The translations under genes and the position numbers were made by a program. From Candidatus Nanosynbacter sp. BB002 (GTDB taxonomy: Bacteria; Patescibacteriota; Saccharimonadia; Saccharimonadales; Saccharimonadaceae): DNA of 32,000 nt. Positions 1 through 31,176 of the stretch are shown piece by piece; within the stretch, counting starts at the first letter, position 1, and each line of letters begins with the position of its first letter. The stretch covers positions 330,001 through 362,000 of the forward strand of contig NZ_CP146064.1 in NCBI RefSeq assembly GCF_037013405.1. The letters are read 5' to 3'. The notes beneath the pieces are model-generated. The model was not told the DNA's origin. It did not search any database and worked only from the letters and a program-made list of their open reading frames with translations.

Positions 1-930
1 CTGGGATGTGATAGTCGCACTGTCTGTCCACGGACCGGGGTCCGTGGGGTCAACGTGGAGATAGAACTCCACGCGTGCCTTCTCACCCTCGTTTAGAGTG
101 AGTTTCATCGTCAATACAGTGGAGGAGCACTCCATTGTATCGACTGTCGTGCGATGAGTGTATAGGGGTCTACCCCATACACTCGCTTCTCTGTAAGTTC
201 CTGCTTGCGACAGCACGGTGTTGCTGTCGCAAGAGAAAACTTGGCCCTGAGACGTGAGTTCATCCCTCAGGATGAACTCTTGGGCGTCCGTGGTAGCGGT
301 CGGGGTTACTAACGTAACCTCGACCAATGAGGGGTCATTCGGGTGAACGACACCCCATTTCGAGGCTCCAGGCCCGGGCTGGCTGCAGCCCGGACACTCC
401 CCCACGTGGATCTCAGTCCGGCGGGTTTGACCGCCGATCTCCCACAGGAGGTCCCGGGTTTCCCCGGGAACGAGCGTGTCGTCAATGTCGACGCGCCACC
501 AGCCATACGCCTCGAAGGCGTAATGGTTGGCCACCTCAACGGCATCGGTCAGTGTGATACTGACCTTACCGCCTTTGTAGACGGCGTGAGCGATAATCTC
601 GCCATTTTCGGTGGCGAGATTGATGGGGGTACCGTAATCCCCCAGTTCCGCCGGTGGTGTGAAGGTGATGCTATCACCTTCACAATGACCCTCCTCGAGG
701 GCCAAGCCAAACCCGAATTCCACGGACTTGTAGGCCGCGAAATCTTTACCGTCCATGGTGCGGATGTACTCCGCGCTGATTTCCCCCGCCGAGATCGGCC
801 GGGGAGTGCACGACGACGTTGCTGCCGTCGTGTCGGGGCTCTCGGGGACAGCAGCTGCCACCCCCGAGAACCCGAAGACCATAGCTAGCAGCGCAAACAG
901 CGCTGCTAGCCCACGTTTCTTCATGGGCAT
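1..930 (-). CDS. Secreted Cna/MSCRAMM-like surface adhesin, N-terminal 310 codons (gene runs off the left edge)
   Basis: The minus-strand frame is open from 930 to 1, checked triplet by triplet with no tta/cta/tca on the plus strand. ATG at 930 has AGGAG 7 nt upstream. The N-terminus MPMKKRGLAALFALLAMVFGFSGVAAAVPE looks like a signal peptide. GDSITFTPPAELGDYGTPINLATENGEIIAHAVYKGGKVSITLTDAVE resembles the ligand-binding A region of collagen-binding adhesins. GC is about 60-65% by eye. Confidence 0.6.
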   Translation of the reverse strand, partial: MPMKKRGLAALFALLAMVFGFSGVAAAVPESPDTTAATSSCTPRPISAGEISAEYIRTMDGKDFAAYKSVEFGFGLALEEGHCEGDSITFTPPAELGDYGTPINLATENGEIIAHAVYKGGKVSITLTDAVEVANHYAFEAYGWWRVDIDDTLVPGETRDLLWEIGGQTRRTEIHVGECPGCSQPGPGASKWGVVHPNDPSLVEVTLVTPTATTDAQEFILRDELTSQGQVFSCDSNTVLSQAGTYREASVWGRPLYTHRTTVDTMECSSTVLTMKLTLNEGEKARVEFYLHVDPTDPGPWTDSATITSQ

Positions 931-1059
931 GGGAAATCTCCTATGATAGGGAGTTGGAATGGATACAGATGTTAAAGTACATTTCGGTTCGCGTCCAGCT
1001 GGGCTGGAACAGCGAATCAAAAATGACTCTAGCACATCCGTATCCCACTGGGCTTTACT

Positions 1060-1068
1060 ATTCTAGCA
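1060..1068 (-). promoter_or_regulatory. Extended -10 element TGCTAGAAT upstream of the adhesin gene
   Basis: The reverse complement of attctagca reads TGcTAGAAT, the same style as other promoters in the window. It would give a ~125-nt 5' UTR. Confidence 0.3.
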
Positions 1069-1123
1069 TAAAATACAGAAAAATGCAATACTCCCACGGC
1101 TATCTCGGCGACGTCACCCCAGT

Positions 1124-1151
1124 AAAAATCCCGCCATGATCGGCGGGATTT
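1124..1151 (-). terminator. Rho-independent terminator downstream of rplA
   Basis: Stem aaatcccgcc / ggcgggattt with a 6-nt loop. On the minus strand it is followed by a T run (ggcgggatttttac). Confidence 0.7.
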
Positions 1152-1180: not shown

Positions 1181-2152
1181 CTAGAGGTTGTTTTCAACTT
1201 TGATACTAGGACCCATGGTAGTAGTCACGGCAACACTTTTGACGTAGGCGCCTTTGAGGCTGCTTGGTTTTTGGGCGTTTAGGCTGCTCAAAAATGCGCG
1301 GGCGTTGTCTTGTAGTTTTTCTGTACCAAACGACACCTTACCGACGCTCAAGTGAACGATGGCTTGTTTGTCGACACGGTACTCCACCTTACCAGCTTTG
1401 GCTTCGGTGACGGCAGTCGCCACGTCTGTTGCTACGGTGCCAGACTTTGGATTTGGCATCAAACCACGTGGACCGAGCAAGCGAGCGTATTTACCAAGTT
1501 TTGGCATGTACTGTGGCGTTGCTACCAAGATGTCAAAGTTCAGCTCTTCTTTGTCCAGCTGCTTCAAGAACTCTTCATCACCAATGATGTCGGCGCCAGC
1601 CTTTTTGGCAGCGGCGTGCTCTTCTTCTGGTGCAAATACTGCGACGCGTACCTCTTTACCGGTACCGTGAGGCAGTGACACGGTTGAGCGAATGTTCTGG
1701 TCTGCCTGGCGTGGGTCAACACCGAGCCGAACGTGCAGCTCCACTGATGCGTCAAATTTGACTGGACTGGTCTCGGTCGCCAGCTTCAAAGCTTCTTCCA
1801 GGGTGTACACTTTGTCTTTCTCGATCTTTTTGGCAGCTTCTTGGTATTTTTTGCCGCGGCGCTCTAGGCGTGGTCGGGTGACTGGCTTTGGACCTTTTTT
1901 GATGTGTGCTTCAGCGTCTTCGTCTTGCGGAGTGGTGTCGCCTGCTTCTTTGCGAGCTTCCTTCTCTGCTTTAGCTTCAGCTTCGTCCAAAGCTTTTTGG
2001 CTGCGCTTGCCTGCTTTGGCGACGTGTGCTTCGCGAACTTCGTGTTTTTCAGCGCCGGCAATGGCAGCCTCGATTTCAGCGATGGTGTTTTTTTCGCTGA
2101 CTTCTAGGTTTAGTTCTGCTGCTTTTTCCAGCAATTCGGCTTTTTTGGCCAT
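1181..2152 (-). CDS. rplA: 50S ribosomal protein L1 with a ~95-aa N-terminal extension
   Basis: The C-terminal ~225 aa are canonical L1 (FDASVELHVRLGVDPRQADQNIR, LLGPRGLMPNPKSGTV). The preferred start is MAKKAELL at 2152, which has GAAAGGA upstream. The track ORF extends in frame to 2215. Confidence 0.9.
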   Translation of the reverse strand: MAKKAELLEKAAELNLEVSEKNTIAEIEAAIAGAEKHEVREAHVAKAGKRSQKALDEAEAKAEKEARKEAGDTTPQDEDAEAHIKKGPKPVTRPRLERRGKKYQEAAKKIEKDKVYTLEEALKLATETSPVKFDASVELHVRLGVDPRQADQNIRSTVSLPHGTGKEVRVAVFAPEEEHAAAKKAGADIIGDEEFLKQLDKEELNFDILVATPQYMPKLGKYARLLGPRGLMPNPKSGTVATDVATAVTEAKAGKVEYRVDKQAIVHLSVGKVSFGTEKLQDNARAFLSSLNAQKPSSLKGAYVKSVAVTTTMGPSIKVENNL

Positions 2153-2258: not shown

Positions 2259-3452
2259 TCAATGAGGCTCGTGTGTCGAACGCCGAAAGGCTGTGACGAA
2301 GGTGTTGTTAGGTACCACAAACAGGTTTGCCTGTGAGCTGTCGTCTATCGGGACGAGTCGTAGCCCAAATCGCCACTGTCCGGATATCTCCTCACAGTGC
2401 AGTTCTGGCTTGGCATTGATAGTAAGGTCGTCAAACATCTCCTGCCATTCACCGTCGTTGTCAGTGTAGAATATCCCGTCAATATGAAACTCACCTGGCT
2501 CAAGCATATGTTCCGTCAAAAAATTCTCATCAGCCATGAGCTGGGCACATAGCTCTGAGGCCTCGGCTTGCATTAGTTTAGTGACGCGTTCAGCTGAGAT
2601 GTTGCGCTGACTCAAATCAGTGACGCGATCGTTAAGTAGATATTCGGTGGCCTGGATTGACTGACTACGCCATTCGTCCTGAAAAGTCGCCAGGTAGTCA
2701 ACTGACTGGTCGTCGTTTTTTTGTTCAGGGTAGATGAGGTCGATATCTGCTAGCTGATCAAACGGTACGATGGTCTTTGTTGCACCGTGAGTCATTTCGA
2801 TATGAAGTTTGGGCAGCAGTTTGGCTTCCCCGTCTTCTAAAACGACTGGCACAAATACAGCGAGCTTGTCAGCGATGATTGGCTCGGTTTGTTTAAAAAT
2901 ATTCACAATGGCTTGACAATGCTCTGAGTCGGCAAGCAGCTCATCAAACTTCCTGGTAGCTCTTTCGGTGAGTCGTTGTATGATGAGTTGCTGTTGTTCG
3001 GGATCAAGCTTGTTGAATGATTTCCTCGACAAAACTCGGTTGACTAGTCCACCGGTATCATAAACCAGTTCGGCGTAGTCCGACGGCTCTTCTGGCTCTT
3101 GTTGACGAATCTCCATGATGTGAGATACATCCAAGCGGTCGCCGTTATCGAGCGCCAAGCGTACCGTGCGTTCGCCCAGCTCTGAACTGACCTCAAACCG
3201 TGCGACTGCTTCTGAGAACTGTTCAACACCTAAGGTAGGCTCGCCGTCACTGTTGTTGTGAGAGGTTATGGCGGTGATGTCGACCGGCTTGCTTAGTAAC
3301 TCGGGAGTGAATAGTTGGTTGTTCAGGGTTGTCTGCAATGTCTCATCTGGTAGGTCTAGCGTCGCTTCCCTGTTGTAGGCCATATCCATCAGGCCGTCCA
3401 GAACAATTGGTCGCTTTTGGGGACTAGGAAACGGTGCTTCACTCATGTACAT
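2259..3452 (-). CDS. Hypothetical acidic cytoplasmic protein (about 395 aa)
   Basis: Long ORF with protein-like composition, many D/E residues, and no TM segment or signal peptide. I recognise no family. Promoter geometry makes the ATG at 3446 an alternative leaderless start. Confidence 0.6.
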   Translation of the reverse strand: MYMSEAPFPSPQKRPIVLDGLMDMAYNREATLDLPDETLQTTLNNQLFTPELLSKPVDITAITSHNNSDGEPTLGVEQFSEAVARFEVSSELGERTVRLALDNGDRLDVSHIMEIRQQEPEEPSDYAELVYDTGGLVNRVLSRKSFNKLDPEQQQLIIQRLTERATRKFDELLADSEHCQAIVNIFKQTEPIIADKLAVFVPVVLEDGEAKLLPKLHIEMTHGATKTIVPFDQLADIDLIYPEQKNDDQSVDYLATFQDEWRSQSIQATEYLLNDRVTDLSQRNISAERVTKLMQAEASELCAQLMADENFLTEHMLEPGEFHIDGIFYTDNDGEWQEMFDDLTINAKPELHCEEISGQWRFGLRLVPIDDSSQANLFVVPNNTFVTAFRRSTHEPH

Positions 3453-14783: not shown

Positions 14784-14958
14784 AGTTTCCCTTTAACAAT
14801 TTGTACTTAAACTTCGATTATACAATATAACAGATTATGCAAATTAGTTCAAGCAATTATCAAATGTTCATTCATTGTGCTTCTGTAAAATATATGATAC
14901 GGTAGTAATAGTAAGATATAACGCATCAGGTGGAGATGATGCAGTAAGGAGTGAGGGT

Positions 14959-16536
14959 ATGGCTAGACAGTCGTGGAAAATATATGTAGCTCGCTTGAAG
15001 CAAGCAGTGACGACATCAAAACAGGCAACCGTAAAACATTTGGGCATCGGTATGATGGTGATGGCTATGGTGCTGCAGTCGGTAGTCTTCTTCCAGGATT
15101 ATGCGCAAGCCGCATCAGACGACATGATCCAAGGCGGTGTCGGCAGCAAAGAAGCAATTTTGGCGCATTATGACAAAAATACCAACAATTTCCGCGACGT
15201 ACTAACCTATAACGGTATCACTAGAGCAGAATTGGCGAATATTTCTAGCACCAAGGTGCGTTATGAGGTTGACTCTTCTGCTCAGTCATGGGGTTGGACT
15301 TCACGGTTTTCTGAAGCTCAGGGTCAAAAAGCCCACACGGTTGCCGGACGTACCATTTACTCCCGTCCGCAGAAGTTATGGGACAGTAGTTGGTACATGG
15401 GTTGGGAAGGTAGTTCGGCCACCCGAGGCAAATTCCGCATCATGTCTTCTTGTGGTAACTTGTTGACCTATAGCGTACCGCAGGCTGTTCCAGTGACGCC
15501 AACGCCACAACCAAAGCCAACACCGCAGCCGCAACCGCAACCAGTTGCCACTTGTGACAACCTGACTATTACTCAACTGTCACGCAATCGCTACCATATG
15601 AGTGCTAAAGCATCAGCTAAAAATGGTGCCACCATCCAGTCAATCCACATCAGGGTGTATGACCCATCAGGCAAACTTGTCGACGCTGGTGGTGTAGCTG
15701 GCGATCAGACTGGTATGGGTGTTGAACTCAAGACGCCGGGTACATACAAAGTTCAAGCAACAGCAGTTACCAGTATCGGTGAAGTAACCAGTCCTAACTG
15801 TGCCGGCAGCTTTACCATCACTGAGGAAAACAAACCAGAAGAACCAAAGCCGTCAGTCAGCATCACAAAAACAGTTAACAAACAAGAACATGTCAAAGTG
15901 GCAGTCAACAGTGATTTCACCTATGAAATTACCGTTAAAAACACTGGCAAAACAGATCTGAAAGATGTTGTCGTCAGTGACACTGCACCAAAAGAAGTGA
16001 CGCTGTCAAACAGCAGTGCTGGTAAGATTGATGGCGGTAAGTGGACGCACACCATCGCTAACTTGCCTGCTGGTCAATCACAAACATTCTCTTTGGCGGC
16101 TAAGTACGCGAAGTTCGTTGAGGGCAAGCACAAGAACACTGTTTGTGTCGACACGCCGACCATCACTGGCTCTCCAGATGCTTGTGATGATGCGACAACC
16201 GAAACGTACACAGTAACGACACCTCCAGCAAATCCACCAACTCAACCAACACCAACACCACCAACTGAGCCAAATAAGCCAACGCAGCCGACACCTACGC
16301 CATCAGTACCGAATGAGCCGAATAAGCCGACACCGACTGAGCCGACTACACCACCAACTACCAATCAAACCACGCCTCCTGCTGCCACGCCGCAGCCACA
16401 GCCAACTCCTACCGCGCCAACCACTAAGGAATTGCCTCTCACTGGTACTCTGAACACCGCTAGCGGCATCTTGGGGCTTGGCGGACTGGTGAGCGTAACG
16501 TGCGCTTATGTGATGAGCCGTCGCAGCTTGCGCTAA
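14959..16536 (+). CDS. Sortase-anchored (LPLTG) cell-surface protein with Ig-like/DUF11-like domains and Pro/Thr stalks
   Basis: The start at MARQSW has AAGGAG upstream. It has a signal/anchor helix. The segment VSITKTVNKQEHVKVAVNSDFTYEITVKNTGKTDLKDVVVSD is DUF11/CARDB-like. LPLTG at 16432-16446 is followed by a hydrophobic helix and an RRSLR tail. Confidence 0.8.
   Translation: MARQSWKIYVARLKQAVTTSKQATVKHLGIGMMVMAMVLQSVVFFQDYAQAASDDMIQGGVGSKEAILAHYDKNTNNFRDVLTYNGITRAELANISSTKVRYEVDSSAQSWGWTSRFSEAQGQKAHTVAGRTIYSRPQKLWDSSWYMGWEGSSATRGKFRIMSSCGNLLTYSVPQAVPVTPTPQPKPTPQPQPQPVATCDNLTITQLSRNRYHMSAKASAKNGATIQSIHIRVYDPSGKLVDAGGVAGDQTGMGVELKTPGTYKVQATAVTSIGEVTSPNCAGSFTITEENKPEEPKPSVSITKTVNKQEHVKVAVNSDFTYEITVKNTGKTDLKDVVVSDTAPKEVTLSNSSAGKIDGGKWTHTIANLPAGQSQTFSLAAKYAKFVEGKHKNTVCVDTPTITGSPDACDDATTETYTVTTPPANPPTQPTPTPPTEPNKPTQPTPTPSVPNEPNKPTPTEPTTPPTTNQTTPPAATPQPQPTPTAPTTKELPLTGTLNTASGILGLGGLVSVTCAYVMSRRSLR
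16216..16425 (+). repeat. Coding Pro/Thr-rich low-complexity stalk with imperfect EPNKPT-TPTP repeats
   Basis: PPANPPTQPTPTPPTEPNKPTQPTPTPSVPNEPNKPTPTEPTTPPTT...PQPQPTPTAPTT. A shorter PT/PQ tract lies at 15491-15546. Confidence 0.7.
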
Positions 16537-20587: not shown

Positions 20588-21634
20588 CTATCTCCGTAGC
20601 CCCACGGCTGTTTGGACGCGGTGCAAAGTTTCGTTAGCGACGAGGTTCATATCGTGCTCGCTGGATTCCAGCTTACTTTCAATTGCCTGCTCGTCAACTG
20701 CCGCCAGGTGCGCTTGGAAATTCGCCAAGAATTCCGCTACTTCATCGGCCACGATTCGCTTGAAATCTCCGTAGCGCTCCATGCCGGCGTATTCGCTAAT
20801 GGTCTGCTCCAAGCTGACGTCTCGTCCAGCGTCCTGGCGCACCAACGTCAAGATCTCTAGTAGATTAGCAATGCCCGGCTGGTTGTCGCGGTCGTACTGC
20901 ACCTTGCCTAGTGAGTCGGTGGTGGCACTCATGATTTTTTTGTGTGCTATCTGCGGCTCGTCGCCGAGGAAAATGATGCCCTTGCCGCTGTCGTTGGATT
21001 TGCTCATCTTTTTGGTCGGGTTCATCAGATCTTTAATCCTCAGGCCTTGGTCGTTGCCGAAGAATTGATGCTGCTGGGCGACTGGTTTGGGTACGACGAA
21101 CAGATTGCCAAATTTGCGGTTCATCCGCTCGGCAATGTCGCGGGTAAATTCTAGGTGCTGCGTCTGGTCGTCGCCAACTGGCACGTAGGTGGCGCCGTAG
21201 AGCAAGATGTCGGCGGCCATCAGGACTGGGTAGTTGAACAGGCCGACGGAAATCTGGTCACCGTGAAGCTTGTCGGATTTATCCTTAAACTGCGTCATCC
21301 GGCTCATCTCGCCAAACCCGGTGAAGCAGTCCAAAATCCACGCCAGCTCGCTGTGGGCTGGGACGCGACTTTGGCGGTACAGATGAATGGCTGGATTATC
21401 TAGCGGCAGCCCCGCGGCGGTATAAATCCGGGCGTTGTTGAGAATGCTGTCGTACAGTTTACTGTGGTCGATTGGCGTGGTGAAGCTATGTAGATCGGGG
21501 ATGAACAGATTGATATCAAAATCGGCCGAGCGGCGCTTCGCCATGTCGACAATCGGCAAAATGGCACCAAAATAATTGCCAATGTGAATATCGTTGTTGG
21601 CGCGCACGCCAGTGAGGATGACGGGTTTACTCAT
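20588..21634 (-). CDS. trpS: Tryptophan--tRNA ligase
   Basis: HIGH-type motif (IHIGNYFG), KMSKS, class Ic length. The start MSKPVILTG is fixed by promoter geometry. Confidence 0.95.
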   Translation of the reverse strand: MSKPVILTGVRANNDIHIGNYFGAILPIVDMAKRRSADFDINLFIPDLHSFTTPIDHSKLYDSILNNARIYTAAGLPLDNPAIHLYRQSRVPAHSELAWILDCFTGFGEMSRMTQFKDKSDKLHGDQISVGLFNYPVLMAADILLYGATYVPVGDDQTQHLEFTRDIAERMNRKFGNLFVVPKPVAQQHQFFGNDQGLRIKDLMNPTKKMSKSNDSGKGIIFLGDEPQIAHKKIMSATTDSLGKVQYDRDNQPGIANLLEILTLVRQDAGRDVSLEQTISEYAGMERYGDFKRIVADEVAEFLANFQAHLAAVDEQAIESKLESSEHDMNLVANETLHRVQTAVGLRR

Positions 21635-21640
21635 AGTCCT

Positions 21641-21649
21641 ATTATACCA
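21641..21649 (-). promoter_or_regulatory. Extended -10 TGGTATAAT, leaderless trpS promoter embedded in the end of the upstream gene
   Basis: The minus strand reads tggtataat-aggact-ATG, a 6-nt spacer. The hexamer overlaps the stop codon of the methyltransferase gene. Confidence 0.55.
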
Positions 21650-22610
21650 TTGATTCGGCGAGAGGTGCTTTACGAAATGCCGCAACAAAAAACGCCTCGG
21701 TCAAGGGGCCTGGCATCAGACGCAAGCACTCGCCTAAGTCATGCGTCAGGTCACGGTCGTTCCAGGACTGGACGGCGGGAACGCGATTTGGCAGCGGTGC
21801 GATGTCGATCGGTATGGGCTCAGCGTCAGGCTGACGGCGCAGCAACCAATCGACGACTGCTTCGTTCTCTTCTGGCGCCATGGTACAGGTACTGTAAACA
21901 AGTGTGCCGCCAGGTTTTAGCAGGCGCCAAGCTTCGAGGATGAGGCGCTTTTGTAGATCACTCAGTCTCCGGATATGCGCCACCGACCAGCTGTCAAACA
22001 ACGAGACGTCACGAGCGTTCAGGCTCATCAGCCCCTCGCCGGAACACGGAGCGTCGAGAAGGATTTTGTCAAAGGCCTCCAGCTGACGGCGGGAAATATG
22101 CCGAGCATCGGCTAGTGTGAACTCGGCCGGGGCGTTGAGCCGTTTGAGGTTGGCCTGGAGTTTCATCAGGCGCGGCTTGGAATTGTCATTGCACACCAGG
22201 TCGGCTTGACCAGCGGACATGGCTTGTATATGGCTGGATTTACCGCCGGGTGCAGCGCACAGGTCGAGGACGCGTTCACCCGCCGCAGGTGCAAGCGCTA
22301 ACACTGGTAGCCAGCTGGCGGCATTTTGGATGTAGCCACGTCCGCTGTCAGCCAGCTGCTGATAATCAGCGAGGTGCTCGGAGATAATTTCATAGCCATC
22401 CGGACACCAGGCAACCTGGCGGCTCAGCAATTCGGGGGCAACTTCCCCATCGACCAGCGGATTGAGGCGAAAACTCTGGGTGCGGGTTTGTGCTAGTTTC
22501 GCCTCGACCTCGGCGCGAGGTAGACCGCTCCACTTGCTAGTGCGATTGATCCAGAGCTCACGCTTTCTCTGGCGCTCCTGAACTGAGTCTTTACGCTTGG
22601 CCATAATCAT
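21642..22610 (-). CDS. RsmB/RsmF-like RNA cytosine-C5 methyltransferase (NOL1/NOP2/Sun family)
   Basis: SAM motif DLCAAPGGKS and the catalytic Cys motifs DAPCSGEG and STCT. Start at 22610 or 22604. The gene overlaps the end of the hydrolase gene. Confidence 0.85.
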   Translation of the reverse strand: MIMAKRKDSVQERQRKRELWINRTSKWSGLPRAEVEAKLAQTRTQSFRLNPLVDGEVAPELLSRQVAWCPDGYEIISEHLADYQQLADSGRGYIQNAASWLPVLALAPAAGERVLDLCAAPGGKSSHIQAMSAGQADLVCNDNSKPRLMKLQANLKRLNAPAEFTLADARHISRRQLEAFDKILLDAPCSGEGLMSLNARDVSLFDSWSVAHIRRLSDLQKRLILEAWRLLKPGGTLVYSTCTMAPEENEAVVDWLLRRQPDAEPIPIDIAPLPNRVPAVQSWNDRDLTHDLGECLRLMPGPLTEAFFVAAFRKAPLAESMV

Positions 22611-27596: not shown

Positions 27597-27700
27597 TTCT
27601 TAGAATAGACTTTTTAAGTTTTTTTATATCATTTCTACAAGTTTGTAAATTGCTATTTATAAATTATAATATTGTAAACTTCAACCTATTTTTTAAAATT

Positions 27701-29929
27701 CTATTTAACTTTAAAAAATTTCAATCTTAAAGCATTACCCAAAACAGATACTGAACTAAATGACATTGCAAAAGCCGCTATCATCGGATCCAATTTTGGT
27801 CCATTGAAAAATGCATAAAATATTCCAGCGGCAAATGGTATTCCAAGTACGTTATAAAAGAATGCCCAAAATAGATTTTCCTTTATATTTGTGATTGTTG
27901 CTTTACTTAATGCTATTGAACCCGCAACATCTCTCAAATCGTTTCTAATTAAGACGATATCAGCGGATTCTATAGCAACATCCGTTCCATTTCCTATCGC
28001 AATTCCAACGTTTGCTTGAGCAAGTGCTGGTGAATCGTTAATTCCGTCTCCAACCATTGCAACAAATTCATCTTTTTCCTGAAGTTCCTTTACTTTTTGA
28101 GATTTCTGATAAGGCAGCACTTCTGAAATTACATCATCTATTCCCACTTGTTTTGCGATAAATTTGGCAGTTTTTTCGTTATCCCCAGTTAGCATTACTG
28201 TCTTGATTCCCATTTTTTTCAGTTTTTCTATAGCTTCCTTGCTTGTTTCCTTGATAACGTCTGCAACTGCAACAAGTCCCGCCAATTCGTTATCAATCGA
28301 AATGTACATTGGCGTTTTTCCTTCATTCAACAAAATATCATAATCTTTTTGAGAAATTTCCACATTGATTTTTCGATTTTCCATCAATTTTCTATTTCCA
28401 ATTTGAACTTCCTTGCCTTCAAATGTTGCACGAATACCGTAACCTGGCATTGCCCTAAATTTTTCATACGGCTTAATTTCAATATTTTTCTCTTTTGCTT
28501 TGTTTACGATTGCTTCTGCCAATAGATGCTCTGAATCATTTTCCACACTTGCAGCAATTTTTAACAATTCATTTTCATTATATTTCCCATAAGCAATCAA
28601 ATTAGTAAGTATAGGTTTTCCTTTCGTAATCGTACCAGTCTTGTCAAATACAACTGTTTTTATTTTGTATGCTGTTTCAAGAGCTTCCCCGCTTTTTATA
28701 ATAATACCGTTTTCAGCCCCTTTTCCAGTCCCAACCATTATTGATGTAGGTGTTGCAAGTCCCAATGCACACGGACACGCAATTACAAGTACAGCGATGA
28801 AAAACGACACTGCAGTAACCAATCCACTTCCACTTAGAAACCAAGCAGTTCCTGTAATTATCGCAATCCCAATAACAATCGGCACAAAATATGCTGACAC
28901 AATGTCTGCCATTCGAGAAATCGGAGCCTTTGACCCCTGTGCCTCCTCAACCAGCTTTATAATTTGTGACAAAACTGTATTTTTACCAATTTCAGTCGCC
29001 TCAAATCTGATACTTCCATTTTTATTTATACTTCCGCCAACAACCTTATCTCCAACTTTTTTGCTTACTGGCAAACTTTCTCCTGTCAACATTGACTCAT
29101 CAACAGAAGTCGCCCCTTCCACAATTCTTCCATCCACCGCAATTTTTTCTCCCGGCTTCACAATAACAATATCTCCAACTTTCAAGTTTCCAATCAGAAC
29201 TTCCTTTTCCGCTCCATTTTCAATAATTTTAGCCTTTTTAGGTTGAAGTCCGATAAGTTTTTTTATTGCCGATGAAGTTTGACCTTTTGTTTTTGCCTCC
29301 AGCAGTTTTCCAAACAAGATTAACGTAATAATTGCACCAGCCGACTCATAATATAAATCCATATGTGCTTCAGGGTCTACAATTACAATTCCAAAAGTTG
29401 CGTAAATTCCATAGAGTACCGCCGCCGTTGACCCAATAGCAATTAATGAATCCATTGTTGGAGATTTTCTTACTAAATTTTTAAATCCATGTGAAAAAAA
29501 ATCTCTCCCAGCATAAATAATAGGCAAAGTCAACACAAACTGTGCCAACGCAAAATTAAGCGGATTTACCTTAGGATTCAAAAATTCAGGAAGTACTGCC
29601 CCAAGCATATGCCCCATCGAAATATACAAAAGTGGAACAACAAAAATAACTGCTAAAATTAATCGATTTTTCAAACTTGTTATTTTTTCTTGATAAAGTT
29701 CCACCTTTTTATCTTCTGTCATATCCTCAGCCAGTCCATACCCAGCCGACTCCACTATTTCCCTAATTTTATCAAAATTGTACTTCTTCTCATCATATTC
29801 AATATTCAATTTTTCAGTTGCAAAATTAACTGAAGCGTTAATATCATTATTTTTATTAAGTGCCTTTTCCACAGTATTGGCACAAGATGCACAGCTCATT
29901 CCAGTTACTGTATAGTTTTTTTCTGCCAT
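27701..29929 (-). CDS. copA: Copper(I)-translocating P1B-type ATPase CopA
   Basis: One N-terminal HMA domain (GMSCASC), the TGES actuator motif, the CPC transmembrane motif ([11 protein letters not shown]), the DKTGT phosphorylation site and [10 protein letters not shown]. The start at MAEKNY has GGAGG 8 nt upstream. Confidence 0.95.
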
Positions 29930-29962
29930 AATCTTTTCCTCCTTCATTTAGCACACTATATC

Positions 29963-30430
29963 TTAAATATGCTTATGTCCGCTATGTTCGCAATTACACT
30001 GCCCCTCCACACAATCACACAAAACTTCTCCCATAGCCGTTTTCCTCTTTTCCTCAACAGCCTTTAAAATCAAATCCAAGTCGTCAAAACTCAGTTCACT
30101 GTTCTCAATAACTTTCCCTATCATTTCTCCAACTTTCGTTTTACAAATTTTATCAAAAGTTCCTAATATATAACTGTTAGCAACTTCCTTTTCTGTAAAA
30201 TCTGTCGAATAAATATACTTGTTCCCAATTTCCTTCTTTTTCAAAATATTCTTTTTCAGCAGCCGATTCAACAGCGCCTTTATTGTAGCCTGTTTCCAGT
30301 TCATTTTCTCACAAAGCACCTCTGCCACAAACTTGCTCGTAACTTCGCTATTTGCCCACACAACTCGCATTACTTCCCATTCTGCATCGGTTATATGCTG
30401 TTTTTTATCGATTCTGCAATTTTCTTTCAC
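29963..30430 (-). CDS. copY: CopY/TcrY-type copper-responsive repressor (BlaI/MecI winged-helix family)
   Basis: The N-terminal winged helix (ITDAEWEVMRVVW...ATIKALLNRLLKK) is BlaI-like. The C-terminal CDCVEGQCNC fits the CxCx4CxC Cu/Zn site of CopY. GTG start 7 nt after AAGGAGG. Confidence 0.88.
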   Translation of the reverse strand: MKENCRIDKKQHITDAEWEVMRVVWANSEVTSKFVAEVLCEKMNWKQATIKALLNRLLKKNILKKKEIGNKYIYSTDFTEKEVANSYILGTFDKICKTKVGEMIGKVIENSELSFDDLDLILKAVEEKRKTAMGEVLCDCVEGQCNCEHSGHKHI

Positions 30431-30450
30431 ATTCTTACCTCCTTTAATGT

Positions 30451-30493
30451 TTACGTTTGTAATCTTTTTACATTATATAGTTTACAACAGTAA
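30451..30493 (-). promoter_or_regulatory. copY-copA promoter with two degenerate cop-box operators flanking a TATAAT -10
   Basis: On the minus strand, TACTGTTGTA lies within 30482-30493 and TACAAACGTA within 30451-30462. Each has one mismatch to TACAnnTGTA. They bracket the TATAAT at 30472-30477. Confidence 0.6.
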
Positions 30494-30517
30494 TCGTTTT
30501 TTGTATAGTCTTGTCAC

Positions 30518-30562
30518 ATATGTATTATCTCACAACATATTTCCATAAATTTATGTGCTATA
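30518..30562 (+). repeat. Right island junction: repeat B (30518-30538), 7-nt spacer, repeat A (30546-30562)
   Basis: Exact copies of the 21-nt and 17-nt segments found at 27562-27596. Confidence 0.85.
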
Positions 30563-30564
30563 CT
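30556..30564 (+). promoter_or_regulatory. Extended -10 TGCTATACT for the 30595 gene, partly inside repeat A
   Basis: This is the backbone-style TGnTATAMT box. AAGGA Shine-Dalgarno sequence at 30585-30589. ATG at 30595. Confidence 0.4.
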
Positions 30565-30594
30565 TGAGCTATCAAATTTAACATAAGGATTTTT

Positions 30595-31176
30595 ATGGCA
30601 AGTACGAAAAATCGAACAAACTCTCAAACAAAAAAATCACAAGTTGAGCTGCTGGTGCCCGTTTTGATTGGTGTGATAGCAGTGTTGATGCTGATTGTTG
30701 GTTGTTTGGTGTGGAAATTGAACTGTCAATCACCACACAAACCATACGCAGCGACGGAAAAGATTGGCAGCGGCTTCGTGAGTTTGGGCTCATTGGGCTT
30801 TCGTTTTGAGGGAAATAAGGCGATCGCTCGGCACGACGCGTCCGTAAAAGAAATTCGTGAGTTTCTGAAAAAAGAAAATGAGCGATCAGGTTGCAAAGAT
30901 AACAATGGTGCGGTCAGCGTGATTGCGTATTCTCAAGACGAAAAACAATTACTATTAGGCTTTGGTTGTGGCAACACGCTCGCGCGGATGTTTGCAGTAA
31001 AGAAAGACGATGGTTGGAAAGCAATTTCACCAACAAATCAGTTTAACTTGTTTGAGGTTCCAAGCTGTAAAATGACTGATGAAAATAATATCAGCAAGGA
31101 AATCGCACCGGTTTGCCAGAATGAAAGTCGCGCTGCAGAGAATGCTCCCCTGACTTATTCTTACAGAGTACGTTAG
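30595..31176 (+). CDS. Hypothetical single-pass membrane protein with a Cys-containing extracytoplasmic domain
   Basis: 193-aa ORF with a basic N-terminus, one TM helix (LLVPVLIGVIAVLMLIVGCLVW) and 6 Cys residues after the helix. No family recognised. Confidence 0.6.
   Translation: MASTKNRTNSQTKKSQVELLVPVLIGVIAVLMLIVGCLVWKLNCQSPHKPYAATEKIGSGFVSLGSLGFRFEGNKAIARHDASVKEIREFLKKENERSGCKDNNGAVSVIAYSQDEKQLLLGFGCGNTLARMFAVKKDDGWKAISPTNQFNLFEVPSCKMTDENNISKEIAPVCQNESRAAENAPLTYSYRVR

Follow-up and report, generated by a model that had tools for sequence, protein, structure and literature searches.

A long-resident, probably wall-anchored adhesin in the gap between ribosomal protein operons of Saccharibacteria, with a probable ancient entry from Actinobacteria

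Related systems and the Saccharibacterial adhesin

Among the closest described systems are the staphylococcal Sdr/Clf MSCRAMMs (SdrC, SdrD, SdrE, SdrG, ClfA/B, Bbp and FnBPA). These proteins carry a signal peptide, tandem Ig-like N2-N3 domains with a TYTFTDYVD motif, a low-complexity stalk, and a C-terminal sortase signal that is followed by a membrane span and a basic tail. The adhesin described here has the same components by prediction, including a putative counterpart of the TYTFTDYVD motif, and its two domains match the N2-N3 regions with Foldseek E-values of about 1e-13 over about 310-330 aligned columns. The two groups nevertheless differ in a number of ways. Sequence identity is only 12-16%. 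The adhesin has six invariant cysteines, including a CPxC motif, where the staphylococcal A domains have essentially none; its stalk is rich in Pro and Thr rather than built of Ser-Asp repeats or B repeats; its sorting motif is LAxTG instead of LPxTG; and it lacks an N1 region. Lastly, it is encoded by a Patescibacterium, while the MSCRAMMs belong to a Firmicute.

Closer relatives in sequence are two Big_8 proteins of Janibacter alkaliphilus (P0183 and P0133, 'SDR-like Ig domain-containing'), which are about 40% identical to the adhesin (E 1e-47 to 1e-107). They share its GHCAGD, TLTDYVE and CPxC motifs, its overall architecture and a Thr/Pro-rich stalk. In contrast to the Saccharibacterial gene, the Janibacter copies have the GC content of their genome (0.71 against 0.72), lie in different genomic contexts, and have VVQTDG with a membrane span at the C-terminus in place of LAxTG.

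Two further systems resemble the locus in part. The LAxTG substrates of class E sortases, such as GspA of Actinomyces oris and the chaplins of Streptomyces, have the same motif, hydrophobic span and basic tail, although their passenger domains are unrelated; by analogy with GspA, the Pro/Thr-rich region of the adhesin could be glycosylated. The pneumococcal capsule locus (dexB-aliA) likewise combines near-identical flanks with deeply diverged, mosaic alleles that are exchanged by homologous recombination in the flanks, but it is a gene cassette, whereas the adhesin locus is a single gene.

A description of this adhesin family in Saccharibacteria was sought in the literature and none was found. 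We give a probability of about 70% to the reading that it is a long-resident, wall-anchored adhesin of one Saccharibacteria clade, which most likely entered once from Actinobacteria in the distant past and now exists as old, recombining alleles.

The adhesin gene and its product

The DNA analysed (the window) is a stretch of 32,000 nt. Its backbone was identified as Saccharibacteria, which is an episymbiont lineage, as the original prediction had supposed it might be. At its left edge the minus strand carries an uninterrupted 310-codon frame, which runs from position 930 to position 1 and off the edge. The same prediction had reported this frame and its absence from the ORF track, and both points were confirmed; at this edge the track lists only a spurious antisense ORF (343..888). 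Contig L001, which is identical to the window over 12,152 nt, contains the full gene (L001:11223-12662). The complete protein has 479 aa, and the features of the part within the window are as follows.

1..930, minus strand: adhesin gene, first 310 of 479 codons (open frame and contig L001)
847..930, minus strand: Sec signal peptide, residues 1-28 (read from the sequence)
391..813, minus strand: first Ig-like domain (N2-like), approximately residues 40-180 (Pfam, HMMER alignment to SdrE, AlphaFold, Foldseek)
385..396, minus strand: invariant CPGC (CxxC) motif at the domain junction, two of the six cysteines that are invariant across the family (alignments)
1..378, minus strand: N3-like second domain of the Ig type, truncated at the window edge so that residues 185-310 of about 325 are included (model strands, Foldseek)

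To the left of the window, contig L001 encodes the end of the second domain, a Pro/Thr stalk of about 110 residues, and, as had been proposed as something to look for there, a putative C-terminal sorting signal, namely LAHTG, a 21-residue hydrophobic membrane span and an RRRR tail. The LAxTG motif is invariant in 29-44 homologues. The NCBIfam LPXTG-anchor model (TIGR01167) does not match the adhesin at E<=0.1, although it does match the relative P0130, and a search of NCBIfam with the adhesin protein returned no family.

The signal peptide noted in the original prediction is confirmed and is of the Sec type. It has a KKR n-region, a hydrophobic core and an AAA cleavage motif (MPMKKRGLAALFALLAMVFGFSGVAAA, with VPE after the cleavage point), and it is kept in 29 aligned homologues. 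Confidence of the AlphaFold model is low in this segment, as expected for a leader that is cleaved.

The first Ig-like domain includes a Pfam Big_8 match (PF17961; residues 69-157, window 460-726) that scores 25.2 bits against a gathering cut-off of 22.9, and many homologues also have a precomputed match to this family. The domain contains the invariant motif GHCxGDS and the sequence ITLTDAVE, the putative counterpart of the MSCRAMM TYTFTDYVD motif. HMMER aligned KVSITLTDAVEV with ITYTFTDYVDK of SdrE, within a sequence match that is weak, and actinobacterial relatives have TLTDYVETH. The second domain is slightly more variable than the first when variability is compared by region, and the alignment shows a conserved ESGGGASYLL segment after it, which is a putative latch strand for a mechanism of the dock-lock-latch kind.

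The AlphaFold model has a pLDDT of 81-93 in the first domain and above 80 over residues 40-325. It contains 20 strands in two blocks, with those of the second domain at E190-E320. The best 50 PDB matches found by Foldseek are all two-domain adhesin regions of the N2N3 type, each with probability 1.0, and come from SdrC/D/E/G, Bbp, ClfA/B, FnBPA, Cna, Cnm, Srr and Als. E-values reach down to 3e-13, and the alignments span 300-330 columns of the N2N3 regions. A differing angle between the domains and the disordered regions of the model keep the TM-scores at a modest 0.40-0.48 on the target. Together with the Big_8 and SdrE matches, this two-domain fold bears out the MSCRAMM-like binding region of the original prediction. 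The Collagen_bind and Cna_B models that it named do not apply, as neither matched in Pfam at E<=1, and Cna is just one of many fold neighbours (2f6a, Foldseek E 2e-12). A thioester-domain or lipoprotein reading was also considered, and was dropped because the fold is N2N3-like and a lipobox is absent.

Probable anchoring at the cell surface

As a rival to display as a monomer on the wall, the protein could belong to a pilus assembled by sortase, either as one of its subunits or as the adhesin at its tip. Actinobacterial pilins, too, can have Ig-like domains, conserved cysteines and sortase signals. However, pilins have LPxTG motifs, and LAxTG is of the housekeeping-sortase type. No pilus-specific sortase or partner pilin gene adjoins the adhesin at any locus, the fold matches are N2N3 adhesin modules rather than pilin backbones, and monomeric adhesins typically have a long disordered stalk such as this one. 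Although disulfide machinery has been linked to pilus assembly (PMC6744442), a pilus protein is an improbable identity for this product.

As a monomeric, wall-anchored adhesin, the protein would be exported by Sec, and its six cysteines would probably be oxidised outside the cell. A housekeeping sortase of the class E type would then probably cleave LAHTG, to judge from the motif, and link the adhesin to peptidoglycan. The stalk would hold the two N-terminal Ig-like domains away from the wall, and a peptide or glycan ligand would probably be clamped between these domains. The leading candidate for this ligand would be the surface of the actinobacterial host cell, with a mammalian matrix or immune protein as the alternative, and the adhesin is a putative attachment factor.

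Another protein encoded in the same window, with DUF11 and a terminal LPLTG, is also a predicted sortase substrate. A regular-expression search for the sortase motif TLxTC gave no match in 400 kb of loci, which all represent the same neighbourhood and thus have little bearing on the genome. A sortase and a class E sortase are annotated in cultured S. epibionticum ML1 (Table S1, PMC10633639), and an enrichment of sortase and of the MdbA/VKOR disulfide machinery has been described for CPR genomes (PMC6744442).

A fixed site between ribosomal protein operons

On its 5' side, the adhesin gene is separated from rplA by a short region with a GC content of 0.466, below that of the gene. The elements of this region, and rplA itself, are as follows.

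938..953, minus strand: Shine-Dalgarno region, GGAG at 941..938, 7 nt before the ATG (sequence, fold)
961..1045, minus strand: 85-nt stem-loop of the 5' leader, beginning some 8 nt past the likely start of transcription (MFE, conservation)
1060..1088, minus strand: adhesin promoter, -35 TTGCAT (1088..1083), 17-nt spacer, extended -10 TGcTAGAAT (1068..1060) (sequence)
1121..1151, minus strand: intrinsic terminator of rplA, AAATCCCGCC-GATCAT-GGCGGGATTT then TTTAC (sequence)
1181..2152, minus strand: rplA, ribosomal protein L1, 323 aa, the conserved upstream anchor (TIGR01169, 313 bits)

The lower GC, the TGnTAnAAT-style -10 and the abutting rplA terminator (hairpin 1151..1121) all agree with what had been described for this flank. 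Both subclades of the clade have kept the terminator, the promoter and the leader. The terminator is kept in 17 of 17 aligned loci, and was not called by the scan because its T-run overlaps the stem. The promoter is nearly invariant in 17 loci, the distant subclade included; the consensus scan missed it because the -35 matches at only 3 of 6 positions. The leader stem-loop has an MFE of -47.2 kcal/mol (z=-6.9 against shuffles) and is kept in 12 loci of both subclades, with compensatory changes at three pairs. Rfam holds no family for it. In the predicted fold the Shine-Dalgarno GGAG and a CUCC upstream of it form the stem of a small hairpin, and TAGGAGAT or AAAGGAT is kept there across loci.

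The rplA product, which has a Lys/Ala/Glu-rich N-terminal extension of about 100 aa, is 97-99% identical across the clade. Beyond the adhesin gene, the L10 leader (RF00557) is followed by rplJ and rplL. The order rplA-adhesin-rplJ occurs in 25 of the 25 species-level Saccharibacteria MAGs recovered, and in 13 further contigs, by a scan with family-specific peptide patterns that returns only genomes carrying a homologue. The adhesin gene thus has a fixed place between two ribosomal operons, rplKA and rplJL. Not every member of the phylum has it there, since published Tn-seq tables of S. epibionticum list tmk-dcd-folA-thyA and an integrase fragment between rplA and rplJ, with the adhesin absent.

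A shift in composition near the start codon of a gene at the window edge might also arise if the end of a high-GC contig had been joined to a Saccharibacteria contig, and the original prediction had raised such a chimera while favouring a genuine junction. The edge itself is arbitrary, as the source contig continues, and rplJ-rplL lie on the far side of the adhesin gene. The junction and its conserved intergenic sequence recur in independent samples and assemblers, including contigs of 330-760 kb, and with more than 25 independent assemblies a lack of spanning reads is very unlikely. The junction is consequently taken to be genuine, and the chance that it is an artefact is negligible.

Old alleles within conserved flanks

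Within the clade, the flanking genes are 97-100% identical, while adhesin alleles are 63-97% identical. At the nucleotide level the flanks show 90-100% identity against 50-79% for the adhesin gene, which has mosaic blocks. The difference is also seen in synonymous divergence (dS about 1.0 for the adhesin, 0.20-0.37 for the flanks) and in dN/dS (0.21 against 0.006-0.04). Gene-wide positive selection was rejected because dN/dS is 0.21. After its entry, the adhesin most likely diversified into old allelic lineages that are reshuffled by recombination between ultra-conserved flanks.

Base and codon composition

Positions 1-930 have a GC content of 0.590, against 0.50 for the backbone. This is less extreme than first described: 60-nt lines range from 0.47 to 0.73, and just 5 of 16 reach 0.63, rather than all falling at 63-73%. 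Backbone genes were measured at 0.44-0.58, where 45-55% had been given for housekeeping genes, and a 930-nt stretch that starts at 21692 and consists of such genes has the same GC of 0.590. About four of the nine excess GC points result from amino-acid composition, and the remainder from codon choice. GC3 of the fragment is 0.684, where 0.541 is expected (z about 2.2), and one housekeeping gene in the window has the same GC3 excess.

Comparison of codon usage, as had been suggested, nevertheless sets the gene apart, and its composition counts as atypical, with GC at 0.59-0.63 against 0.50. Seventeen of its 19 proline codons are CCC or CCG, while CCA makes up 50% in the backbone (chi-square p=6e-9), and GC3 of the Pro/Thr stalk is 0.77 against 0.36 in the comparable stalk of a native LPxTG protein from the same window. 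The offset recurs in every locus, with a GC of 0.58-0.65 for the adhesin gene and 0.44-0.50 for the flanks; it tracks the backbone, and in every genome the gene lies 10-15 points above its flanks. Both the raised GC and the CCG/CCC bias are stable throughout the Saccharibacterial branch.

The cross-phylum acquisition of the original prediction could be read as a recent import, in which a high-GC Actinobacterium, for instance the current host, would have donated the gene, and the raised GC would be a donor signature that has not yet ameliorated. The gene is indeed richer in GC than its flanks, its proline bias resembles that of actinobacterial homologues, and the family is shared with Actinobacteria. 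However, each of the 25 species-level genomes recovered, from two subclades, has a homologue with the same GC offset at this site, a finding of the kind that the prediction itself had named as refuting its view, and the alleles have a synonymous divergence of about 1. No mobility gene, integrase or tRNA was found among the neighbours at the borders of the gene, and a search for flanking repeats or target-site duplications around it found none. Similarly, tblastn against plasmid and phage collections returned no homologues, so no vector was identified. In addition, identity to the closest actinobacterial match is no more than about 40%, and all sequences in a mid-GC context fall into a single clade. 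A recent acquisition is therefore highly improbable.

Because synonymous sites are saturated, GC cannot be a simple relic, and it is unlikely that the present composition is an un-ameliorated trace of the donor. A continuing force, such as GC-biased gene conversion at a recombination hot spot, would more probably maintain it.

Origin of the family

The family is small: among 1.84 billion proteins, only 54 representative clusters match the adhesin. About 40 of these look actinobacterial by amino-acid make-up: the distant members are poor in Lys and rich in Ala, Thr and Gly, and have LAxTG or LPxTG motifs. Two distant members were checked at the DNA level, and both sit in DNA of 0.70-0.72 GC; one of them is Janibacter alkaliphilus, whose two paralogues are in tandem.

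In a neighbour-joining tree, midpoint-rooted and with most of its distant tips labelled by amino-acid composition alone, the mid-GC clade has a bootstrap of 100, and its union with the Janibacter group 99. The nearest outgroups, P0130 and P0136, are on short mid-GC contigs with uninformative neighbours, and the node at which the mid-GC clade joins the tree has high-GC lineages to either side. Monophyly of this clade and its sister position to the Janibacter group favour one ancient transfer from Actinobacteria to Saccharibacteria. A cross-phylum transfer is the best reading of these sequence relationships, and it would be ancient, since it came before two subclades diverged that now share only 77% identity in enolase.

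Alternatively, no transfer into Saccharibacteria may have occurred, if the family was ancestral to both phyla or moved to Actinobacteria, and if GC was raised by amino-acid composition and local forces (gene conversion or selection on codons). The tree is in effect unrooted, and a root on the stem of the mid-GC clade would leave the direction of transfer either way. Amino-acid composition accounts for nearly half of the GC excess, a housekeeping gene shares the GC3 excess, and saturation, as noted, speaks against GC as a simple relic. Against this, the peptide-pattern scan recovered Saccharibacterial members only from the 25-genome clade and a few further mid-GC contigs, most clusters look actinobacterial, and high-GC lineages flank the critical node. 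LAxTG signals and cysteine-rich secreted proteins are, moreover, hallmarks of Actinobacteria. A history without such a transfer is hence rather unlikely, although it deserves more weight than a recent import.

With ancient actinobacterial entry as the preferred reading, the proposed cross-phylum acquisition stands in part: the family is shared with high-GC Actinobacteria such as Janibacter, but the event was not recent. The same applies to the suggestion that the adhesin came from the host lineage. It does have actinobacterial relatives, but the nearest one identified, Janibacter, is not known as an oral host genus.

Implications for host attachment

One tentative interpretation, which we regard as possible but doubtful, is that the locus is a determinant of host range. 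A module captured long ago from Actinobacteria, the phylum of the hosts of Saccharibacteria, would be held as old, balanced alleles, swapped between near-identical genomes by recombination in the ribosomal gene flanks, and these alleles would set which host strains can be attached to, or would evade host or immune recognition. If so, GC-biased gene conversion at a recombination hot spot would have produced the abnormal GC and codon usage as a side effect, and adhesin expression would be controlled by the 85-nt leader hairpin, as a new element that regulates or stabilises.

Type IV pili and unnamed 'additional close-proximity adhesins' have been implicated in host attachment by Saccharibacteria (PMC11623550, PMC10633639). 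For the recognition and retention of particular actinobacterial hosts by these and other Patescibacteria, the locus is a specific candidate that can be put to the test: a two-domain adhesin with a predicted wall anchor, fixed in position but highly variable in sequence between genomes that are otherwise nearly identical, from a family that otherwise looks mainly actinobacterial. Genetic tools exist for the phylum, so deletion and allele-swap tests are feasible. The locus also calls for caution when transfer is inferred from composition, as one gene can keep an offset of 10-15 GC points throughout a lineage, and such an offset need not mark a recent import or a mis-assembly.

Reading frame and composition

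The first 310 of the 479 codons of the adhesin gene lie at window positions 930..1 on the minus strand. This frame is unbroken and open at the left edge, as was originally predicted, and because it runs past that edge it is missing from the ORF listing, where the one entry over the region (343..888) is antisense and spurious. GC content is 0.590 over positions 1-930, 0.466 over the 5' flank (931-1151), and 0.500 over the backbone (1152-27600). The original prediction put the individual 60-nt lines at 63-73% GC; five of the 16 reach that level and the others are lower (range 0.47-0.73). A GC content of 0.590 is also attained by a 930-nt stretch of housekeeping genes beginning at 21692.

The expected composition was obtained by recoding the adhesin amino-acid sequence with the window's own codon usage. 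For the fragment, this gives GC 0.540 and GC3 0.541, against observed values of 0.590 and 0.684, so about 4 of the 9 points of excess GC are due to amino-acid make-up and about 5 to codon choice. An equal GC3 excess occurs in a tRNA-synthetase gene at 20588-21688, which leaves the GC3 of the fragment at z ~2.2. Proline is encoded by CCC or CCG at 17 of 19 positions in the fragment, whereas the backbone uses CCA for 50% (p=6e-9). The Pro/Thr stalk of the adhesin is also strongly biased (GC3 0.77, CCG at 29 of 37 prolines). A composition control is provided by a second predicted sortase substrate, whose stalk is just as rich in Pro/Thr:

14875-16536, plus strand: DUF11 domain, Pro/Thr stalk, KELPLTG, hydrophobic span, RRSLR

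This protein is useful as a control because its GC (0.50) and codon usage are backbone-like, with a stalk GC3 of 0.36 and CCA at 15 of 27 prolines. The codon bias of the adhesin gene is therefore real, and the initial observation on this region was true but overstated.

Architecture and fold

The complete gene was found on L001, a 79-kb contig retrieved through an exact look-up of the adjoining L1 protein, which equals the window over 12,152 nt without difference and extends further left. The 479-aa product comprises, from N- to C-terminus, a Sec signal, a folded region of ~300 aa, a Pro/Thr-rich stretch of ~110 aa, LAHTG, a 21-residue hydrophobic span, and EARRRRSSREE. The fragment exceeds the Pfam Big_8 threshold and, judged by sequence, belongs to that family. 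SdrE aligns to it weakly, with ITLTDAVE opposite the MSCRAMM TYTFTDYVD motif. In an AlphaFold model built with 44 homologues, residues 40-325 have pLDDT above 80 and form two β-sandwich blocks. Every one of the best 50 PDB neighbours of this model is the two-domain ligand-binding region of a surface adhesin, including SdrC/D/E/G, Bbp, ClfA/B, FnBPA, Cna, Cnm, Srr1/2, and fungal Als, with E-values down to 3e-13 over 300-330 columns. Of the proposed Cna/MSCRAMM-like character, the MSCRAMM fold was borne out, but Pfam gave no Cna/Collagen_bind membership by sequence. The predicted mode of action of the protein is MSCRAMM-like.

Unlike staphylococcal MSCRAMMs, the adhesin has six invariant cysteines (with a CPxC motif where the domains join), a Pro/Thr stalk, and an LAxTG instead of an LPxTG signal. 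LAxTG is the signal type of the housekeeping class E sortases of Actinobacteria. The NCBIfam LPXTG-anchor model is below threshold on the adhesin and above it on one relative.

A conserved locus

The gene is bordered by the following features:

1151..1121, minus strand: rplA terminator, upstream border of the adhesin gene
1088..1060, minus strand: the adhesin's own promoter, TTGCAT-17-TGcTAGAAT
1045..961, minus strand: 85-nt hairpin (-47.2 kcal/mol, z=-6.9) in a 5' leader of ~120 nt
7 nt upstream of the adhesin ATG: Shine-Dalgarno GGAG
L001:12821-12959: L10 leader RNA (RF00557), then rplJ-rplL, on the far side of the adhesin and outside the window

Terminator, promoter, and leader are kept across 17 loci, including the distant subclade. 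The near-perfect hairpin is conserved in both subclades, with compensatory changes at three base pairs, and a search of the leader against Rfam matched no family. The hairpin may serve to stabilise the mRNA or have a regulatory role. A direct repeat of 18 nt (89% identical) has one copy just past the adhesin stop codon (L001:12662-12679) and another within the L10 leader (L001:12877-12894). It may be left over from a partial leader duplication; the copies are wrongly positioned for a target-site duplication.

The junction between this GC-rich gene and its surroundings had been read as a candidate for either a cross-phylum acquisition or a chimeric assembly. A scan with one genome per species recovered 25 loci, all from Candidatus Saccharibacteria, and every sufficiently long one has the order rplK ... 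eno ... rplA - adhesin - rplJ - rplL. The order is identical in additional independent assemblies (ENA, JGI, Logan), on contigs of up to 760 kb, which makes a chimera very unlikely. Recent acquisition also fails to account for the data, since the gene occupies the same site with raised GC in all recovered loci (0.58-0.65, against flanks of 0.44-0.50), and a search of the locus for mobility genes, tRNA, and flanking repeats found none. Such raised GC in the relatives is an outcome that the original prediction had itself named as refuting it. Adhesin GC moreover follows the backbone, rising from ~0.59 to ~0.64 as backbone GC goes from 0.44 to 0.49. No homologues were found in plasmid and phage searches.

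The adhesin gene is not phylum-wide in Saccharibacteria. S. epibionticum ML1 has tmk-dcd-folA-thyA and an integrase fragment between rplA and rplJ (Table S1/S2, PMC10633639), and this gap therefore carries different cargo in different lineages. Comparison of the region between the rplKA and rplJL operons (L001:10973-13021, which includes the adhesin; SEML1_0408-0414, with a thymidylate-synthesis cluster and the integrase fragment) suggests a recurrent insertion site.

Family distribution and origin

When 1.84 billion cluster representatives were searched exhaustively with HMMER, only 54 relatives emerged. Outside the Saccharibacterial branch, these proteins contain little Lys and much Ala, Thr, and Gly, and carry LAxTG or LPxTG. 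The DNA context of two distant cases was examined: Janibacter alkaliphilus has two tandem paralogues of GC 0.71 in surroundings of 0.72, and the other relative lies on a contig of GC 0.70-0.71. The Janibacter paralogues (L028:6307-9461) have neither LPxTG nor LAxTG; their C-termini consist of VVQTDG, a membrane span, and RRH, perhaps an alternative signal for sorting or retention. The nearest outgroups, P0130 (51% identity) and P0136, are on short contigs with gene GC 0.60-0.62 and flanks of 0.44-0.51; their GC offset is like that of the adhesin, yet they occupy different genomic sites.

A tree of the two Ig-like domains (N2N3), limited by its neighbour-joining method, its rooting, and the inferred taxonomy of most tips, groups all mid-GC-context sequences together (bootstrap 100) and joins this clade to the Janibacter group (bootstrap 99), with other high-GC-type sequences outside. 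A single ancient transfer from Actinobacteria to Saccharibacteria is the most economical reading.

Allelic diversity

In the main subclade (14 loci), protein identity is 97-100% for rplA, rplJ, and enolase and 63-97% for the adhesin. Nucleotide identity falls from 90-100% in both flanks to 50-79% within the gene, but some genomes share internal blocks of 97-100%, and the alleles are therefore mosaic. Median dS is ~1.0 for the adhesin and 0.20-0.37 for the flanks, and dN/dS is 0.21 and 0.006-0.04, respectively; adhesin alleles thus predate the genomes in which they now occur and are swapped by recombination. Variation is found throughout both domains, the second being slightly more variable. 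The dN/dS value rules out gene-wide positive selection. The saturation of synonymous sites makes a passive relic an unlikely explanation for the GC3 excess; a plausible hypothesis is that it arises from GC-biased gene conversion at a recombination hot spot.

Within the coding region, at window 195-242 (L001:11911-11958), an inverted repeat of 21 nt with 81% complementarity and a loop of 6 nt overlaps a segment where indels separate allele groups (SCDSNTVLSQAG vs CPAPA--GQAG).

Other features of the window

Ribosomal protein L1 (1181-2152, minus strand) has a Lys/Ala/Glu-rich N-terminal extension of ~100 residues that is kept in the clade, its L1 domain beginning near residue 100 of 323. The similarly extended S. 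epibionticum gene tolerates transposon insertions and is classed as non-essential (Table S1, PMC10633639). Adjoining rplA, a 397-aa acidic protein (2259-3452, minus strand) has no signal peptide and no match in Pfam or NCBIfam. It is unusually variable (70-96% identity, against 97-100% for neighbours; dN/dS ~0.18), although its dS, in contrast to that of the adhesin, is backbone-like.

Between secY and the infA-rpsM-rpsK-rpoA block, positions 27600-30600 form a low-GC island (GC 0.35 vs 0.50). This island departs further from the backbone composition than the adhesin does and may have been imported from a lineage with low GC. It contains:

27701..29947, minus strand: CopA-like heavy-metal P-type ATPase, 748 aa (HMA, E1-E2 ATPase, and HAD domains)
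29963..30430, minus strand: CopY/Penicillinase_R-type repressor

A possible role in attachment

Architecture, fold class, conserved motifs, locus structure, and patterns of distribution and diversity are directly established for the adhesin. The protein would be exported by Sec, and its cysteines are probably folded oxidatively; MdbA/VKOR is enriched in CPR genomes (PMC6744442). A sortase might then cut at LAHTG and anchor the protein to the wall; the window also encodes a second predicted substrate, the DUF11 protein with its terminal LPLTG. No sortase gene was found in the sequences of the adhesin neighbourhood loci; the S. epibionticum annotation includes a sortase and a class E sortase (PMC10633639). 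Ligand would be caught between the two domains, and the adhesin may thereby contribute to attachment to a bacterial host or to mammalian surfaces.

A literature search turned up no description of the family in Saccharibacteria, and published work invokes unnamed additional adhesins beyond type IV pili (PMC11623550, PMC10633639). The adhesin is a testable candidate for host attachment and specificity.
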